Program-made: the position numbers and the translations under genes
In this document: positions 24,187 through 30,440 of the stretch, piece by piece
How the letters are laid out: every line of letters begins with the position of its first letter
How positions within the stretch are numbered: the first letter of the stretch is position 1
Notes under the pieces: generated by a model
What the model was told of the DNA's origin: nothing
The model's database searches: none
Seen by the model: only the letters and a program-made list of their open reading frames with translations
Assembly (NCBI GenBank): GCA_963750165.1
Contig: CAVVPN010000004.1
Coordinates: 1,216,001-1,280,000, forward strand
Reading direction: 5' to 3'
From: an uncultured Gemmataceae bacterium
GTDB taxonomy: Bacteria; Planctomycetota; Planctomycetia; Gemmatales; Gemmataceae
DNA length: 64,000 nt

Positions 24187-24319
24187 CCCATCTTGTCTGC
24201 CGCTTGCGGCTTGGGCAAGCAATATAAATTGAAGTCGTTTCAAGCCAGGTTGACGGTGCTTTTTCCGGGCAAGGCGGCTATTCCCTCCGCCTGTTTTTCC
24301 TGACAGGTGAGGGAGTCCC

Positions 24320-24428
24320 ATGCGAACCGTCGCCCTTGTGCTTGCCGGTCTGCTTCTGTGTGCGGCGTGCGGCTGCGGAACGGTGGCGAACCTGCGCGGC
24401 GAAAACCTTGCGCTGATCGGCGGTGGTG
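24320..24428 (+). pseudogene. 5' fragment of a YceK/YidQ-like lipoprotein gene, truncated against antisense pyrF
   Basis: GAGGGAG RBS. MRTVALVLAGLLLCAACGCGTVANL...IGGGV has a lipobox-like GC. The frame then runs into the antisense strand of pyrF. Confidence 0.45.
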
Positions 24429-25090
24429 TCGGCGGCGCTGCCGCCCTGGGCGCCGAAGCCCGGCACCAGGAAAAGCACATCCGGCAACAGCTGGCGCACC
24501 GCCGCCCAGGCGCCGACCGCGGCGGCGACGTGCTGGTAGAGCGGTTTGCCGTCGCAGAGCAAATCCTGAAAGAGACTGGCGCCGCGGTTGCTGGTGCGGA
24601 CGAGGACGAAGACGCCACGGCCGTCCTGGCGGGCGCTGCGCAGGAAGGGTTCGACGGCGTCGCGGCCGAGGTAGGGGTTGACGGTCAGGGCGTCGGCGTC
24701 CCAGACGGGCAGCGGCGGGCCGCCGTGGCGGACGCCGGCGAAGGCGGCGTCGGCGTAGGCGACGGCGGTGTCGGCGATGTCGTTGCGCTTGCCGTCGAGG
24801 ATGGTGAGCACACCGCGTTCACGAGCGCGGCGCAGGACGCGCTGCAGCGCGGCCAGTCCGGCTGGACCACACGCCTCGAAGAAGGCGAACTACAGCTTGA
24901 CCACCGGCACGACCACTTCCAGGATGCGCAGCGATAATTCCTCAAAGGCGGCGACGGCGTCCAGGGTAGCGTTACCATGCCGGCGGCGCAGCTCGTCCGG
25001 CAGCAGGGCCCAGCGCGGGTCGAGGCCCACGCACAGGGCGTTGCCGCGCCGGCGGCTCAGGGCGGTCAGGCGGTCGGCGAAGTGGTCGAT
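24426..25090 (-). pseudogene. pyrF: Orotidine-5'-phosphate decarboxylase pseudogene
   Basis: HFADRL...LCVGLDP...VK(L*)FAFFE...ILDGKRNDI...ALTVNPYLG...VFVLVRTSN...LVPGFGAQGG. ATC replaces the start codon after a GGAGG RBS, there is an in-frame TAG at 24892-24890, the GAVVGAT segment is missing and the C-terminus is lost. Confidence 0.88.
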
Positions 25091-25515
25091 GACAGGCCTC
25101 CAGATGGAACCGAAAGTACTTCCATACCCTTACAACAACCGGGCAGATTTTTACCTCACCCCACAGCTACCGTCCAGAGATTTCTGATGAATTTGCCTTT
25201 TCGTGCTCGCGCTTTGAAAAACCCCCCTTTTTTGTGCATTCTCTCTTGTTTACGCCTTTTTGCCTGATTATCATACGTGGATGAATTTGGTGAGGAAGAA
25301 AGTCATCCGAGGTGCAACCGGACTGGCGAACGAAGCATCGGCTCCGTTTATGCCAAGTCAAGCGCTTGTGGTCGTCGGAAATTGCGGGAGAAGGTAGGCG
25401 TTTCTTGTCGGCAGCGCGGTATGTTTCCAAGAGAAAAAGGCCCGGAAGGCCAAGCGTTGAACACCCTGACCAGCGGCGCGAGCCGCTCCGGGATCTTGTT
25501 AAGGAGAGAACTGCC

Positions 25516-26235
25516 ATGCGATTTGTTGCCCGATTCGCAGTGATTGTCATCGTGGTGGTTGGTGTGACCGCTGCCACGGCCCACGGATGGTACGGACAGA
25601 AGACCGTGGTACATACGCACATCCGCACCTGGGGTGGGGCGACCCCGACATCGAGTTCGCCAGTCTATGGCTCCCCAGTCTACGGTTCGCCCGTGTACGG
25701 TTCGCCCGTGTATGGCTCGCCGGTGTATGGCTCGCCGGTGTACGGTTCGCCCGTGTATGGCTCGCCGACCTACGGTTCCCCGACGTACGGTTCCCCGACG
25801 TACGGTTGCTCTGGCGGGTCGTTTGGCTCGCCAATGTACGGTTCGCCAATGTACGGTTCGCCATCCTTTGGATGCACAGGCGGTAATGCCGGGTTTTTCT
25901 CGCAGGGGTTCGGGAACCAGGGGCTCATTGATCCCCAGGGGCTCATGACCTGGTTCAAGTTTTTTAAGGATTTGCAAGGCACCATTGGCGGTGGCGGTAC
26001 GACGCCCTCCGACTCCAAGTTGCTCAGCCGCATTGAGGCCTTGGAGAAAAAAGTCGATGCCTTGAAACCGTCCGACTTGCTCCCCGCCGACTACAAGGAG
26101 TTCAAAGCGAATACGGAACAGGCGTTCAAGGGAATTAACGCCTACCTGGATCGTTTGGACTCCAAGTTAGACGGCATCCAGGGTCGGCTGAAGGTTCTGG
26201 AAAACAAAACAAAAAATCTGAAGGAACAGCCTTGA
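25516..26235 (+). CDS. Exported repeat protein: signal peptide, (YGSPV/T/M)n pentapeptides, amphipathic helix, C-terminal coiled coil
   Basis: AAGGAG RBS at 25501. Signal ends ATA/AHG. Nine tandem YGSP(V/T) units at 25666-25800, then FGSPM-YGSPM-YGSPS. Heptads include RIEALE and RLKVLE. Confidence 0.88.
   Translation: MRFVARFAVIVIVVVGVTAATAHGWYGQKTVVHTHIRTWGGATPTSSSPVYGSPVYGSPVYGSPVYGSPVYGSPVYGSPVYGSPTYGSPTYGSPTYGCSGGSFGSPMYGSPMYGSPSFGCTGGNAGFFSQGFGNQGLIDPQGLMTWFKFFKDLQGTIGGGGTTPSDSKLLSRIEALEKKVDALKPSDLLPADYKEFKANTEQAFKGINAYLDRLDSKLDGIQGRLKVLENKTKNLKEQP
25666..25800 (+). repeat. Coding 15-bp tandem repeat x9 (YGSPV x6, YGSPT x3)
   Basis: Units differ mostly at synonymous positions (tat/tac, ggc/ggt, tcc/tcg, cca/ccc/ccg). 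Confidence 0.95.
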
Positions 26236-26258
26236 TGGGGCGTCGCTGAAGGCTTGTT

Positions 26259-26314
26259 GAAGCGCCGCGCGACGAATCGGACAGAACCCCTGTCTGTTCT
26301 CCGCGCGGCGCTTC
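26259..26314 (+). terminator. Long hairpin downstream of the YGSP gene, possible terminator or mRNA stabiliser
   Basis: 13-bp arms gaagcgccgcgcg ... cgcgcggcgcttc with an inner stem, followed by tgtttgtt. Confidence 0.5.
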
Positions 26315-26543
26315 TGTTTGTTGGTGGCCTCAAGGTAACGCCGGATTTCTCACCGCACCAGCAAGTTTTTTTGTTTTTTTATTGCTTCCGCGACTGCGCC
26401 GACGGTATTTTCACATCCTGTGTCAACCCTGACGTGAAGACGACGGTTAGGCTCGGCTTTTTCCGGCCGGCCCCTGCCCGTTCGTGGACTCCGTACGTCC
26501 CAGGGAATTTCCAATCTGTTGACCCTCTTTTCCAGGATGAAGC

Positions 26544-27809
26544 ATGGCCAAAGCGAAGCCCGGTGCCAAAGCAAAGACCGGCGCGAAGGCGAAATCCGGC
26601 GCCAACGCGAAATCCGGTAGCAAGGCGACGACCAGTGCTAGGGCGGTGGCATCCGCGCCGGGGGCGGGAGTTCCCCTGGCACAACCTTGTGACTTCTGCG
26701 TGGTACTGACCCTATCCCCGGATGCCCAACCCGAGGCCGCCCTCCGCGCCCTCCAAAGAAACGCGCGTGCCAACCAAGGTGCTCTCAGCGCGCCGCTAGC
26801 GGGCACGGACCCGGAAGTCGCGCGGGCGGTGGTTCAGGCGTCTAAAAAATGGGCGAAGAACGACACCATCACCATCGGGTTTATGAACGGCACCGCGTCG
26901 GATCGGGACTTTGTGGAGAAGGTGTGCCGGGAGTGGTTTGACGGCGTCGAGACGGACCTCCAGCTGGATTTCGGCCGGTCCCCGGGAGGCGCCAATGTCC
27001 GGATCGAGTTCGTGCCGAACGGCCCGAACCAGTCCGCCATCGGTCTGGACGCGGAATCGCCGCAGTTCGCCGGTAAGTCCACCATGACGCTCGGCTTCAT
27101 CCCCAGTTCCAGTAACCTTCCCGAGAAGGAGAAACGGCGGCTCACCCTCCACGAGTTCGGCCACGTCCTGGGCTTCCTCCACGAGCACCAGCGCTCCGAC
27201 CGGCCGTTCACGCTCAACATGCAGGTGCTGCGGAACACGTTCGGTGTGTCGCCAAATTTCTGGAATGACGACCAGATCAACTTCAACATCACCAACACGT
27301 TTCAACTCGACAGCAGCAATTTCCTGACGACCGAGTTCGACCACAACTCCATCATGGCCTACTTCATCCCGGCGGCGGCGGCGAGCGACGGCATTGGCAC
27401 GCCGATCAATAACGACCTGTCCGACGACGACCGGAAAATGCTGAAGCTGGTGTACGGCAAGGGGAACGGGCAGACCCAGGTCACCCCCCTGAGCAAGAAA
27501 GACTTGCCTCTGGGCGCGACCTCGCCCACCCAGGTGTCTCTGAAAGCCGGCCAGGTACAGCCCCTGACCCTGACGATTCCCAAGGCCCGCATGTATCAAA
27601 TCCGAACGGTCGGCGACAAGCACACTGACCTGGAGGTCTTCGGGCCGGATAACGACAGCGCGTCGATCGGTCGAGGCGTTCTGGATTTGGAGAGTTTCAA
27701 CATGGTGGCCAATCTGTTTCTGGAACCCGGCGCCTACCTCGTCAAGGCCGCGCTCAAGAGTCAGACGGAGAGCGGCGACTTCGGCGTGACCGCCAAGCTG
27801 CTGTCCTGA
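26544..27809 (+). CDS. Metzincin zinc metalloprotease (astacin/M12A-like) with an N-terminal Lys/Ala repeat and a C-terminal PPC-like beta domain
   Basis: HEFGHVLGFLHEH (HExxHxxGxxH), Met-turn SIMAY, KW..N.TI.IGF..G start of the catalytic domain, and C-terminal YQIRT.G...TDLEVFGP...LEPGAYLVK. Confidence 0.9.
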   Translation: MAKAKPGAKAKTGAKAKSGANAKSGSKATTSARAVASAPGAGVPLAQPCDFCVVLTLSPDAQPEAALRALQRNARANQGALSAPLAGTDPEVARAVVQASKKWAKNDTITIGFMNGTASDRDFVEKVCREWFDGVETDLQLDFGRSPGGANVRIEFVPNGPNQSAIGLDAESPQFAGKSTMTLGFIPSSSNLPEKEKRRLTLHEFGHVLGFLHEHQRSDRPFTLNMQVLRNTFGVSPNFWNDDQINFNITNTFQLDSSNFLTTEFDHNSIMAYFIPAAAASDGIGTPINNDLSDDDRKMLKLVYGKGNGQTQVTPLSKKDLPLGATSPTQVSLKAGQVQPLTLTIPKARMYQIRTVGDKHTDLEVFGPDNDSASIGRGVLDLESFNMVANLFLEPGAYLVKAALKSQTESGDFGVTAKLLS

Positions 27810-28083
27810 GGCCGTTCCCCAGCGGCCTCAACAGAGAGTACGTATTATTCCCCGCCCCGGCCCTCCCACCGGGGCGGGGCGGGGGCCGCCAACCCACTTG
27901 CCAGTGTGCCGCCCTCAGCCGCCTTTGCCAGTTCTGCCGCAAGCCCGGTTTTCACCGGCACTATGGAAATTGACCAAACTTCGGCGCGGTGGATAGTCGA
28001 AAAGAAGAAAGCCCGCCGCAGCCGGCTTTGGTGTCGGCCCGCGTTGCCGGGTTCCTTCCCCACCCAGTCGAAGGATCGACCCC

Positions 28084-28995
28084 ATGCGTGCCCCGCGCGC
28101 GTTCACCTTTGTGGCGGCAGGCCTAGGCCTGCTGCTGGCCCACACCGGTAGTCACGGCCACCCGCCCCAGGATCCCTGTATCACCCCGTGCCAACCGGTT
28201 ACCGTTAACGCCCCACCGCCCAAGGTGGTGGTCCACCTCTCGCCGCCCGAGGTTGTCATCAAATCGGACTGCGACTGCTGCACCAAGCCCGCGCCCCGCT
28301 GTGCCCCTTGCTGCGCTCAACCGGCCGCCCCCTACTACCCTGCGGCTCCGATGGCGTACTACCCGATGGCCGCGGCGCCGACCATGACCATGATGCCCAT
28401 GGCCTCGTACACCTACGCCGCGCCCATGCAGTCCGCTCCGATGATGATGCAGTCCGCCCCGATGATGACGCAGGCGGCCCCGGTCATGTCGCCAATGTAC
28501 TCCGCTCCGGTGATGGCGGCCCCCACCATGGTTCAGGCTGCCGCCCTGACGTACCCCGCGGCTGCCCCCACCTTCAACGCGCCGGCCGCACCCGTGATGA
28601 TGCCGTCCTCCCCGAGCATGCCAGCGTCGCCGTTCTGTGGGTCCGGCTTCTCCAGCCCGTTCAACTCGTCGTCGGCCAGTTCCGCGGCCACGCTGGCCGG
28701 CATGAAGGCGTTTCACGAGACGAACCTGAAGAACCAACTCAACGCCCTGGAGGACACGCGCCGGACCCTGGAGTTCCAGATGTCGATGGTCAACCCCAAT
28801 CTGTCCGGTTCGCCGACAGTGGGCAAGGCGGCCGCGCCACGGCAGACCGGTACTGACGATGCCACAACCCGTAAAATCAACGAGATTGAAACGACCATTC
28901 ATCGCCTCATGGGCATCATCGAAACCCACGCCGACACCCTGAAAAGTCACCAGAATCGCCTGAAGGAACTGGATAAAAAATCTGGAGGCTCTTGA
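28084..28995 (+). CDS. Exported Cys-cluster, Met/Ala/Pro-rich low-complexity protein with a C-terminal coiled coil
   Basis: Signal peptide MRAPRAFTFVAAGLGLLLAHTGSHG. CITPC, CDCC and CAPCC clusters, degenerate (Q/S)APMM repeats, and heptads ending RLKELD. Confidence 0.82.
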   Translation: MRAPRAFTFVAAGLGLLLAHTGSHGHPPQDPCITPCQPVTVNAPPPKVVVHLSPPEVVIKSDCDCCTKPAPRCAPCCAQPAAPYYPAAPMAYYPMAAAPTMTMMPMASYTYAAPMQSAPMMMQSAPMMTQAAPVMSPMYSAPVMAAPTMVQAAALTYPAAAPTFNAPAAPVMMPSSPSMPASPFCGSGFSSPFNSSSASSAATLAGMKAFHETNLKNQLNALEDTRRTLEFQMSMVNPNLSGSPTVGKAAAPRQTGTDDATTRKINEIETTIHRLMGIIETHADTLKSHQNRLKELDKKSGGS

Positions 28996-29281
28996 GTCCT
29001 TCGGGGGCCGCGAAGGCGGGGCGAGCCGTCACGGACACTTGATGAAGCCCTGCCGCGCGGATTCCCGCACGGCAGAGGTGGCGAACTGGGGGCGCGTGGC
29101 GCCCCCTCTTTTTTTCCGACGTTGGCGGGCCGCGCTCGCTTTCACCGTCACGGACAAACCGCGCGGGGTTGTCGATCTTCTCAAGCGTACCGAAGAAACC
29201 GACGATAACGGAGTTAAGGCGAACAACGGTTTTTGCCACCCGGACTGCCGGGCTGGCGCTTACCATTACGGGGAGAGTCAC

Positions 29282-30346
29282 ATGCGTCCATGGGTCGCCT
29301 TACCCATTCTTGTGTTCGGGCTGGGCTGTCACCAGTGCTGTACTCTCCCCCCCGAATGTTGCCCGCCCAAGACGTGTGATTCCTGCTGCGGCCCCTGGGG
29401 GACGACACCGCCAGGCTTGCCCCAGCAGGCGCCGCAGCCGTGCCCTCAGCCCGCGCCGCCGGTTGCCGTACCAAAACGGCCTGTGACAGCGGAGGTACAG
29501 CAAGCGCCGCCCTGCCCGCCGCGGGTGAAGCTGTTGCCGCCGGACGTGGAAGTCAAGGGTCAGGAGGTGATCCACGTCAACGTTCCCCCGCAAAAGGTGT
29601 ACCTGACGCCCCAGCAACTGGCCGCCCACCTGCCGCCTCAGCAGGCTCCGGCTTACCAGGCGCCGCAGATGATGACGCCGATGGCCCCGACGATGATGAT
29701 GCCTGCGGCCGCGCCGATGCAGATGGCCAGTTCCACGGTGGAGTCGGTGCCGAGCAACCGGGCCACACCGGCTCTGGGCATTGACTGGGTTAAGATACGC
29801 ATCCCCGTCCTGCGCCTGTTCGCCATCCCCAACCAGGAACAGGTCACGGTCACCATGCGTCAGTCAACGACGTCGCAGAGCCCCGTCCTGGCCGCCCCGA
29901 TGGTCCAACAGGCTACCATGTACCAGGCAGCCCCCGTGATGCAGGCGCCGATGATGCAGGCCCCTGTCATGCAAGCGCCGGTGATGCAGGCCCCTGTCAT
30001 GCAGGCGCCGGTGATGCAGGCGCCCGTGATGCAGGCCCCTGTCATGCAGGCGCCCGTGATGCAGGCGCCCGTGATGCAGGCGCCCGTGATGCAGGCGCCC
30101 GTGATGCAGGCCCCTGTCATGCAGGCGCCCATGATGCAGGCGCCCATGCAAATGGCTCCCGCGGCGCCACAGCAGCAGGCCCCGATGGCCTGCCCGCCGT
30201 GTCCACCCTGCCCGCCGTGCCCGCCCAGTGCGTCGCCCGAGGACCTCCAGCGACTCAACCAACAGCTTCAGACGCTACAACAGATGCTCCAGCAACGGAC
30301 GCAACAGAACCCCTGTCCGCCGCCGTGTCCGCCGCCCTGCCAGTGA
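29282..30346 (+). CDS. Exported/lipoprotein-like protein with Cys-Pro termini, (QAPVM)n repeats and a short Gln-rich coiled coil
   Basis: GGAG RBS. MRPWVALPILVFGLGC, then CHQCC..ECCPPKTCDSCC, 13 QAP(V/M)M units, CPPCPPCPPCPP, LQRLNQQLQTLQQML and C-terminal CPPPCPPPCQ. Confidence 0.88.
   Translation: MRPWVALPILVFGLGCHQCCTLPPECCPPKTCDSCCGPWGTTPPGLPQQAPQPCPQPAPPVAVPKRPVTAEVQQAPPCPPRVKLLPPDVEVKGQEVIHVNVPPQKVYLTPQQLAAHLPPQQAPAYQAPQMMTPMAPTMMMPAAAPMQMASSTVESVPSNRATPALGIDWVKIRIPVLRLFAIPNQEQVTVTMRQSTTSQSPVLAAPMVQQATMYQAAPVMQAPMMQAPVMQAPVMQAPVMQAPVMQAPVMQAPVMQAPVMQAPVMQAPVMQAPVMQAPVMQAPMMQAPMQMAPAAPQQQAPMACPPCPPCPPCPPSASPEDLQRLNQQLQTLQQMLQQRTQQNPCPPPCPPPCQ
29942..30136 (+). repeat. Coding 15-bp tandem repeat x13 (QAPVM/QAPMM)
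   Basis: Alternating variants caggcgccggtgatg, caggcccctgtcatg and caggcgcccgtgatg. Confidence 0.95.
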
Positions 30347-30361
30347 TGAGCTCGACCGGAC

Positions 30362-30424
30362 AACAGCGGACCCCGTTGACGTTTCGTGCTCCCGCAGCGC
30401 GAAACGTCAACGGGGTCCGCTGTT
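30362..30424. repeat. Palindrome, family B, likely terminating the island genes
   Basis: aacagcggaccccgttgacgtttcg-loop-cgaaacgtcaacggggtccgctgtt, with ~25-bp perfect arms. Confidence 0.8.
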
Positions 30425-30440
30425 ATCCAGCCGCTTTTAT

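Follow-up and report, generated by a model that had tools for sequence, protein, structure and literature searches.

A conserved trio of repeat proteins beside an interchangeable protease slot in Gemmataceae

The four genes of the locus

The window considered here is a stretch of 64,000 nucleotides (nt) from an uncultured Gemmataceae bacterium (contig CAVVPN010000004.1 of assembly GCA_963750165.1, forward-strand positions 1,216,001 to 1,280,000), whose genome (G000) spans 9.6 Mb with 66% GC. Between positions 25516 and 30346, it holds four co-oriented genes, all on the + strand as described in the initial annotation: gene A (25516-26235, 239 amino acids), a zinc protease gene (26544-27809, 421 amino acids), gene C (28084-28995, 303 amino acids) and gene D (29282-30346, 354 amino acids). 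The repeat proteins A, C and D make up a conserved trio that lacks annotation, and the protease gene occupies a slot whose content changes from one locus to the next. The genes are preceded by 420 nt upstream of A and separated by successive spacers of 308, 274 and 286 nt, and each is followed by hairpin folds, in line with the spacers of roughly 270-310 bp and downstream hairpins first reported. These structures include a long hairpin 3' of A (26254..26319, +), a GC-rich hairpin 3' of the protease gene (27850..27884, +) and a long inverted repeat with 38-nt arms that closes the locus (30353..30433, +). The C-D spacer also contains a terminator-like stem-loop with a T-tract (29088..29106, +), a type of site found only at chance level overall (6 observed versus 6.0 in shuffled sequences). 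The AT-richer intergenic DNA noted earlier was recovered before A and the protease gene (GC 0.52 and 0.56), but not before C and D (0.66 and 0.65, for a window average of 0.656).

Export signals were judged by hydrophobicity and lipobox pattern, and coiled coils by sequence pattern and, for D only, one AlphaFold helix. Protein A is predicted to begin with a Sec signal (about residues 1-24), followed by a (YGSPV/T)n tract, an amphipathic segment and, at the C-terminus, a coiled-coil-like region that contains two RhxxhE motifs. The tract encodes 9 tandem YGSP units (25666..25797, +) out of 11 in the protein, and every unit contains a Ser-Pro pair such as astacins favor at P1'-P2'. Protein C combines a predicted Sec signal, a Cys/Pro cluster, a conserved K-hydrophobic-x-PPEVV motif, an [AS]P-hydrophobic tract (12 [AS]P[MVT] in the protein) and a His-containing, coiled-coil-like C-terminal segment. 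Protein D, predicted to be a lipoprotein with Cys16 as its lipobox cysteine, carries a Cys/Pro cluster, a VxVPPxKV motif, a beta-hairpin, a (QAPVM)n tract (29942..30151, +, with 14 consecutive QAP units out of 19 in the protein) and a C-terminal helix flanked by CPP repeats. The Pro-periodic tracts are thus as initially claimed, including the APMM-type repeats of C, and so are the Cys clusters of two of the three proteins (9 Cys in C and 17 in D, for only 2 in A). An export signal had been proposed for all three proteins; this holds as a Sec prediction for A and C, but the signal of D looks lipoprotein-like, a feature overlooked at first. The Gly-Cys pair of the D lipobox is invariant in 17 of 17 aligned rows, and 79 of 150 D representatives begin with Met and fit the lipobox pattern, many of the others being fragments.

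An AlphaFold model of D based on a 149-row alignment predicts with confidence the family-defining beta-hairpin (residues 162-182, 29765..29827, +, predicted local distance difference test (pLDDT) score about 90) and the C-terminal helix (residues 319-342), the remainder being disordered. Coiled coils are predicted in the trio, possibly of the trimer type in C. RhxxhE, a coiled-coil trimerisation motif, occurs in 11 of 19 C, 3 of 16 A and 0 of 20 D proteins, and in the window's A but not its C. A is the fastest-diverging member, and Pro makes up 14-22% of C and D. No Pfam or NCBIfam family matched A, C or D above cut-off, nor did any Pfam family match 17 D and 12 C aligned homologues; matches to Extensin (Pfam), AbsR1 and LegP (NCBIfam) fell far below cut-off and were rejected. 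Foldseek returned no match at E<=0.001 for the mostly disordered D model, and ESM Atlas yielded no usable match for D and only sub-0.9 hypothetical clusters for a homologue. A word-based homologue search with C was weak (7 matches, mostly already known loci). A 15-nt periodicity marks the DNA of A and D, and a crude genome-wide repeat scan found 20 frames, including these two, none of the others having the plan of the trio. A further repeat region matching the YGSP tract of A was detected by tblastn at G000:C3:3311012-3311515.

The protease was initially identified as a metzincin from its zinc-binding motif HEFGHVLGFLH (27150..27182, +) and its Met-turn SIMAY (27348..27362, +), and this identity is well supported. 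HEFGHVLGFLHE, which begins at residue 203, corresponds to HExxHxxGxxH followed by Glu, the motif of family M12A; the Met-turn, at residue 269, fits SIMxY, and the protein matches Pfam Astacin above cut-off. Its closest relative in the PDB is the bacterial elastase myroilysin (E 1.5e-22), rather than BMP1, the comparison first made. The predicted model adopts an astacin fold, with a Foldseek match to myroilysin at E 1.3e-17 and a template modelling (TM) score of 0.89. A basic low-complexity N-terminal tail and a prodomain precede the catalytic domain (about residues 95-306), and the C-terminal PPC-like domain resembles, in the predicted model, collagen-binding PPC domains according to Foldseek. 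Cys52 of the prodomain, a region modelled with pLDDT<50, is invariant in 3 of 3 aligned homologues and may act as a cysteine switch holding the zymogen, a role reported for the prodomain Cys of myroilysin (PMC9848320). Myroilysin is also reported to digest elastin, which is rich in Pro, Gly and Val (PMC4377995), hence this type of enzyme can cut such polymers. Used as a query, the protease gave no match in a scan of the genome collection and only 2 distant matches in a weak word-based homologue search.

Conservation of the trio and its protease slot

A, C and D occur in this order on a single contig at 17 loci (G000, G075, G069, G078, G123, G120, G101, G250, G247, G011, G239, G027, G221, G232, G131, L107 and G663). 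A is inverted in two further loci (L125 and G828), and C-D without a visible A was found at five, three of them at contig ends. All four genes are present in identical order in another genus (G075), while G070 shows A and the protease gene at a contig end. A 50-residue motif of D was detected in at least 36 of 252 genomes of the family, defined as Gemmataceae by record titles, at E<=0.005, and in at least 32 of 252 at E<1e-7; these counts are lower bounds, 27 candidates per genome having been scored. The D profile matches 180 protein clusters at 50% identity. Outside the family the motif is rare, with 3 marginal matches in a phylum sample of 400, and 2 clear and 1 marginal among 308 other genomes of the class. 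Public records with D comprise three from Gemmatales/Gemmataceae, two from Planctomycetota/Planctomycetaceae and five from unrelated taxa (one a weak cyanobacterial match), by their titles; the planctomycete titles support the host proposed at the outset. Four records labelled Acetobacteraceae or Alcaligenaceae (L117, L120-L122) carry typical D genes, and the depositors' labels may be ill-fitting for these contigs. At L125:6790-7479 a C-like gene is split over two frames by a frameshift or an assembly error.

The occupancy of the protease slot was counted over 17 loci found via D alone that had readable upstream DNA and at least C-D; G131, G241, G012, G233 and G249 were left out because their upstream sequence is too short. 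A protease gene adjoins the trio in 15 of these 17 loci, and belongs to one of five unrelated families. Nal1-like proteases fill eight slots (G069, G120, G239, G027, G221, G247, G011 and G199), two of these assignments being made by sequence similarity without a Pfam match. M12A proteases fill three (G232, L125, which has a subtilase in addition, and G828), neprosin two (complete in G250, only the prodomain in L107), papain C1A one (G101) and a V8-like serine protease one (G663). The linkage of the three repeat proteins to a protease is therefore conserved, and their homologues are not scattered independently of it. The astacin is not their defining partner, however: M12A accounts for only 3 of the 17 loci, and the idea of a fixed astacin partner was rejected since the slot is swapped between close relatives. 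The M12A-bearing G232 and the Nal1-bearing G239 share 74.5% identity in D and 68% in C, but only 35% in A, and the protease classes lie dispersed over a tree of 22 D proteins. Grouping of the trio-linked M12A proteases as one clade was rejected by the approximately unbiased test (p-AU 0.006), and that of the trio-linked Nal1 proteases was not (p-AU 0.12, 4 of 28 rows being omitted for lack of an anchor motif).

Incidental linkage, i.e., a trio residing in variable, protease-rich islands, with any match between repeats and protease due to composition, kinship and motifs picked post hoc, appears very improbable in view of the background frequency of the slot families, about 0.1-0.2 genes per genome, set against an adjoining protease in 15 of the 17 loci. 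Nal1-like matches number 51, spread over 40 of 252 genomes; for M12A, 19 of 201 family genomes gave a match. Two of 20 further Nal1 loci are followed by an A-like gene, indicating that Nal1-like proteases mostly live elsewhere. No trio was seen among the matches listed for 16 other M12A loci of the family, and a lone D lies about 3 kb from an M12A gene in G052. The incidental explanation nonetheless draws on the statistics of the repeats considered below: words shared by protease and trio are not significant overall, composition controls account for part of the signal and the motifs were chosen post hoc. It leaves unexplained a 16-residue repeat common to the neprosin and the C protein of G250.

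Several observations concern proteases of these families and their neighbors. A second M12A gene of G000 (C4:423628-424333, L041), seemingly frameshifted after the zinc motif, falls in a separate, tight M12A clade with L025, L030, L032 and L039; the latter four lie near genes with, by eye, the look of thermolysin-type metallopeptidases and may form with them another protease cassette. Most Nal1-like genes of the family adjoin a gene of 80-110 codons whose product resembles their own N-terminal domain (L128-L133, L135, L136, L138, L141-L145, L072, L076, L086 and L126), and which possibly encodes a stand-alone inhibitor. Likewise, stand-alone neprosin activation-peptide genes adjoin the trio at L082:7033-7473 and L107:323-841. 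At L167:536-5351 and L166:8958-10817, two loci outside the family are bordered by trypsin-like genes, by a fusion of trypsin and endonuclease and by a CHAT protein, surroundings suggesting islands of conflict genes.

Repeat dialects and a possible protease switch

The repeats of a locus share a common vocabulary, or dialect, which is associated with the class of the neighboring protease. Using one genome per genus, we compared 3-mer cosines within and across loci. Similarity was higher within loci for C-D (0.246 versus 0.152, p 5e-5), A-C (0.14 versus 0.073, p 1.5e-4) and A-D (p 0.005), and shuffled controls gave smaller gaps. With respect to protease class, [AST]P is richer in six M12A loci than in nine Nal1 loci (p=0.004), which fits the reported preference of astacins for Pro at P2', then for small residues at P1' (PMC3186203). 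Nal1 loci are enriched in Q[ASG] (p 0.03), and Ala-Gly is highest in the papain locus. E[ASFG] in the V8-like locus is the highest of 25 loci, and we take the Thr and His at the S1 positions of that enzyme to indicate Glu specificity. The Glu-Ser/Glu-Ala dialect of this locus (G663) was also observed in L084, L057 and L083, where D has no adjacent C. Neprosin is a reported prolyl endopeptidase, and in G250 a 16-residue Pro-containing repeat just before its catalytic domain is the same as in the C protein, with 42 of 48 bases identical. In the G232/G239 pair, the change lies in A (Q[ASG] 0.9 versus 5.5 and [AST]P 4.2 versus 2.5 per 100 residues), C and D being nearly equal. A joint permutation test of the expected motifs gave p 2e-5 and holds after same-genus pairs are dropped.

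The most economical reading of these data, which we hold tentatively and place slightly below an even chance, is that a lipoprotein anchors a Cys-linked assembly, that its spacers consist of arrayed cleavage sites and that a zymogen protease switches it. A, C and D would build a single disulfide-stabilised envelope or surface assembly, anchored by D; beta motifs, coiled coils and mutually compatible repeats would bring in C and A. The low-complexity tracts, plausibly substrates of the neighboring protease as initially suggested, would offer tandem cleavage sites to whichever enzyme occupies the slot. The protease would be kept as a zymogen, by a putative cysteine switch in the window and by the products of stand-alone prodomain genes at other loci, and would reach the periplasm or surface by twin-arginine translocation (Tat) in two loci, otherwise probably upon cell damage or lysis. 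Cleavage of the spacers would then switch the material, by condensing or by shedding it; at this locus an astacin-type enzyme would cleave QAPVM, YGSPV and SAPMM on the N-terminal side of Ala/Ser-Pro. Once the protease is swapped, the repeats would adapt to the new enzyme, beginning with A. Conservation, linkage and swaps are observed, and signals and folds predicted; that the proteins assemble together and are cut, where this happens and whether the switch sets or sheds the material are inferred. A "clotting" system is conceivable, if unlikely: a three-chain, lipid-anchored periplasmic precursor, with repeats rewritten to match the recruited protease, would be turned into a plug, glue or coat when damage or the lysis of neighbors frees a cytoplasmic protease.

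Several lines of evidence weigh against a protease-switched assembly, beginning with the location of the enzyme. The enzyme of the window has no recognizable export signal: by heuristic tests, it lacks a hydrophobic N-terminal segment (score 1.16) and a twin-arginine motif. None of 13 proteases scored has a hydrophobic signal (maximum 1.85), and a convincing Tat-like signal was found in only 2 of 19, both M12A, so that protease and trio seem to start in different compartments. Moreover, the reported preference of myroilysin is for hydrophobic P1/P1' residues, not specifically for Pro at P2'. The complete trios of G078 and G123 have no adjoining protease, and no neprosin was found elsewhere in either genome. 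In five genomes with readable sequence, no C precedes D, and profile A9, run without a positive control, did not find C in these five. Regarding the dialect, the shuffle controls indicate that part of the sharing reflects composition and kinship, and the window's A has no 3-mer common to both C and D. The expected motif scores highest in only 10 of 19 loci, and [QN]P in the Nal1 locus G011 equals that of the neprosin loci. The class motifs were picked with the data already in view, and three classes are represented by one or two loci; together with the 10 of 19 top ranks, this means that the permutation p-value is inflated. Finally, proteases share repeat words with their own trio no more than with others (17 loci, p=0.15), which makes G250 a single case and leaves the idea that every protease bears the repeat word of its locus unsupported overall.

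Two alternatives take the missing export signals at face value. The locus could be a conflict or defence module, in which a strongly inhibited protease would wait in the cytoplasm as effector and act on the exported trio, a damage or attack sensor, decoy or plug, only once the envelope is breached. We consider this possible, if unlikely: it accords with proteases mostly devoid of signals, with the stand-alone prodomain-like genes adjoining neprosin and Nal1-like proteases, with the long branches of the trio-linked proteases, with the patchy distribution of the trio and with the two loci beside CHAT or trypsin-nuclease genes. However, genes for nucleoside triphosphatases, nucleases or known defence functions do not recur alongside the trio (PADLOC was not searched), small prodomain-like genes also stand beside trio-less Nal1 genes, and two M12A proteases carry Tat-like signals. 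These same Tat-like signals also count against a second, decidedly improbable alternative, in which the trio alone is a structural or adhesive polymer and the protease a cytoplasmic quality-control guard that destroys unexported, aggregation-prone precursors. Such a guard would explain why export signals are missing, why dialect and protease match and why two loci have no protease, but sits poorly with the zymogen features and with a PPC/collagen-binding-like domain typical of enzymes acting on insoluble extracellular substrates.

A third alternative starts from the repeats, which resemble tandem cut sites. The initial annotation had raised multi-core peptide precursors, and this resemblance lends the idea some weight. 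The protease would free short peptides specific to each locus (in the window, pentapeptides of the APVMQ- and SPVYG-type) that signal kinship or density, and the scaffolds displaying them would be the coiled coils and the lipoprotein. The near-perfect pentapeptide repeats of the window, G070, G241 and G199 agree with such a role, as does a locus-specific dialect that follows protease class. Even so, we regard it as quite unlikely. The tracts are irregular, without a repeated core, in many homologues (G075, G247, G083 and G663), the Cys clusters, beta motifs and helices are conserved instead of the peptides, and the neighborhoods of the loci read have no tailoring enzyme, peptide transporter or receptor in common, so that the locus does not resemble a ribosomally synthesized and post-translationally modified peptide system of the multi-core type.

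Next to the locus, a gene diverging from A (24278-25095, -), which we take to be pyrF-like, is a copy damaged by an in-frame stop and deletions. A close copy lies near 505 kb on contig C11, a hint that a duplication or rearrangement brought the cassette in.

The cassette is a real and apparently undescribed system. A literature search found no description of it, within a coverage that left out most subscription journals as well as supplements such as the wall-proteome tables tied to PMC8567305, where a homologue is possible. Three unannotated protein families are defined by the trio, in a cassette whose enzyme can change its catalytic class (metallo, serine, cysteine or glutamic) between loci while its candidate substrates appear to re-tune their repeats. 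The pattern suggests a cell-surface material of a new kind, switched by proteases. If cleavage proves true, such loci would be a natural record of protease-substrate co-evolution, and the specificity of uncharacterised proteases, for instance the bacterial Nal1-like ones, could be read from their neighbors. They would also supply enzymes for Pro/Gln-rich polymers and put forward a concrete candidate for the proteins of the Gemmataceae envelope, which are poorly defined.

Comparison with known systems

Fibrinogen with thrombin, and procollagen with BMP1, are protease-switched systems of three chains, which bear coiled coils, clusters of Cys and low-complexity linkers that vary. The parallel is an analogy only: the trio shows no sequence or fold match to them and no Gly-X-Y repeats, and differs by one predicted lipid-anchored chain and an interchangeable protease. 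The umbrella toxin particles of Streptomyces likewise assemble three secreted proteins, with coiled-coil parts, into one particle. No toxin, lectin or ALF-repeat domain was detected in the cassette, whose protease looks catalytically intact and is encoded by a separate, variable gene.

Closer to the host, the planctomycete wall is reported to be dominated by proteins, with YTV cysteine-rich proteins conserved across the class (PMC8567305, PMC12673574). The trio resembles these in being repetitive, Cys-rich and, by prediction, exported. It differs in that A, C and D have no YTV match and are patchy, whereas YTV proteins are class-wide; a separate cysteine-rich repeat protein of this known wall-protein type is encoded near position 512340 (-) of contig C11 in G000. 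Stalks are reported in some Gemmataceae (PMC3327967), and nothing in our analysis ties the trio to them.

For the enzyme itself, myroilysin (M12A; PDB 5gwd and 5zjk) provides the nearest comparison, with a similar predicted catalytic fold, HExxHxxGxxHE motif, Met-turn Tyr and prodomain Cys. Myroilysin is a secreted digestive elastase, whereas the protease of the window has no export signal and has a PPC-like domain and dedicated candidate substrates. For the cassette as a whole, the Fap system of Pseudomonas (FapA-F) is reported to combine, in one operon, exported repeat proteins and a trimeric coiled coil with a periplasmic peptidase that the system requires (PMC5557850), and thus shares with our locus exported repeat proteins, a predicted coiled coil and an associated protease. 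No Fap or curli amyloid subunit or outer-membrane pore was recognized by Pfam or NCBIfam among A, C and D, or by fold for D; the trio has no FapF-type barrel, and its repeats are Pro-rich instead of the Asn/Gln type of amyloids, the Pro content of C and D arguing against cross-beta repeats. Above all, FapD is a fixed periplasmic C39 peptidase, whereas the slot of the cassette changes protease family from locus to locus.

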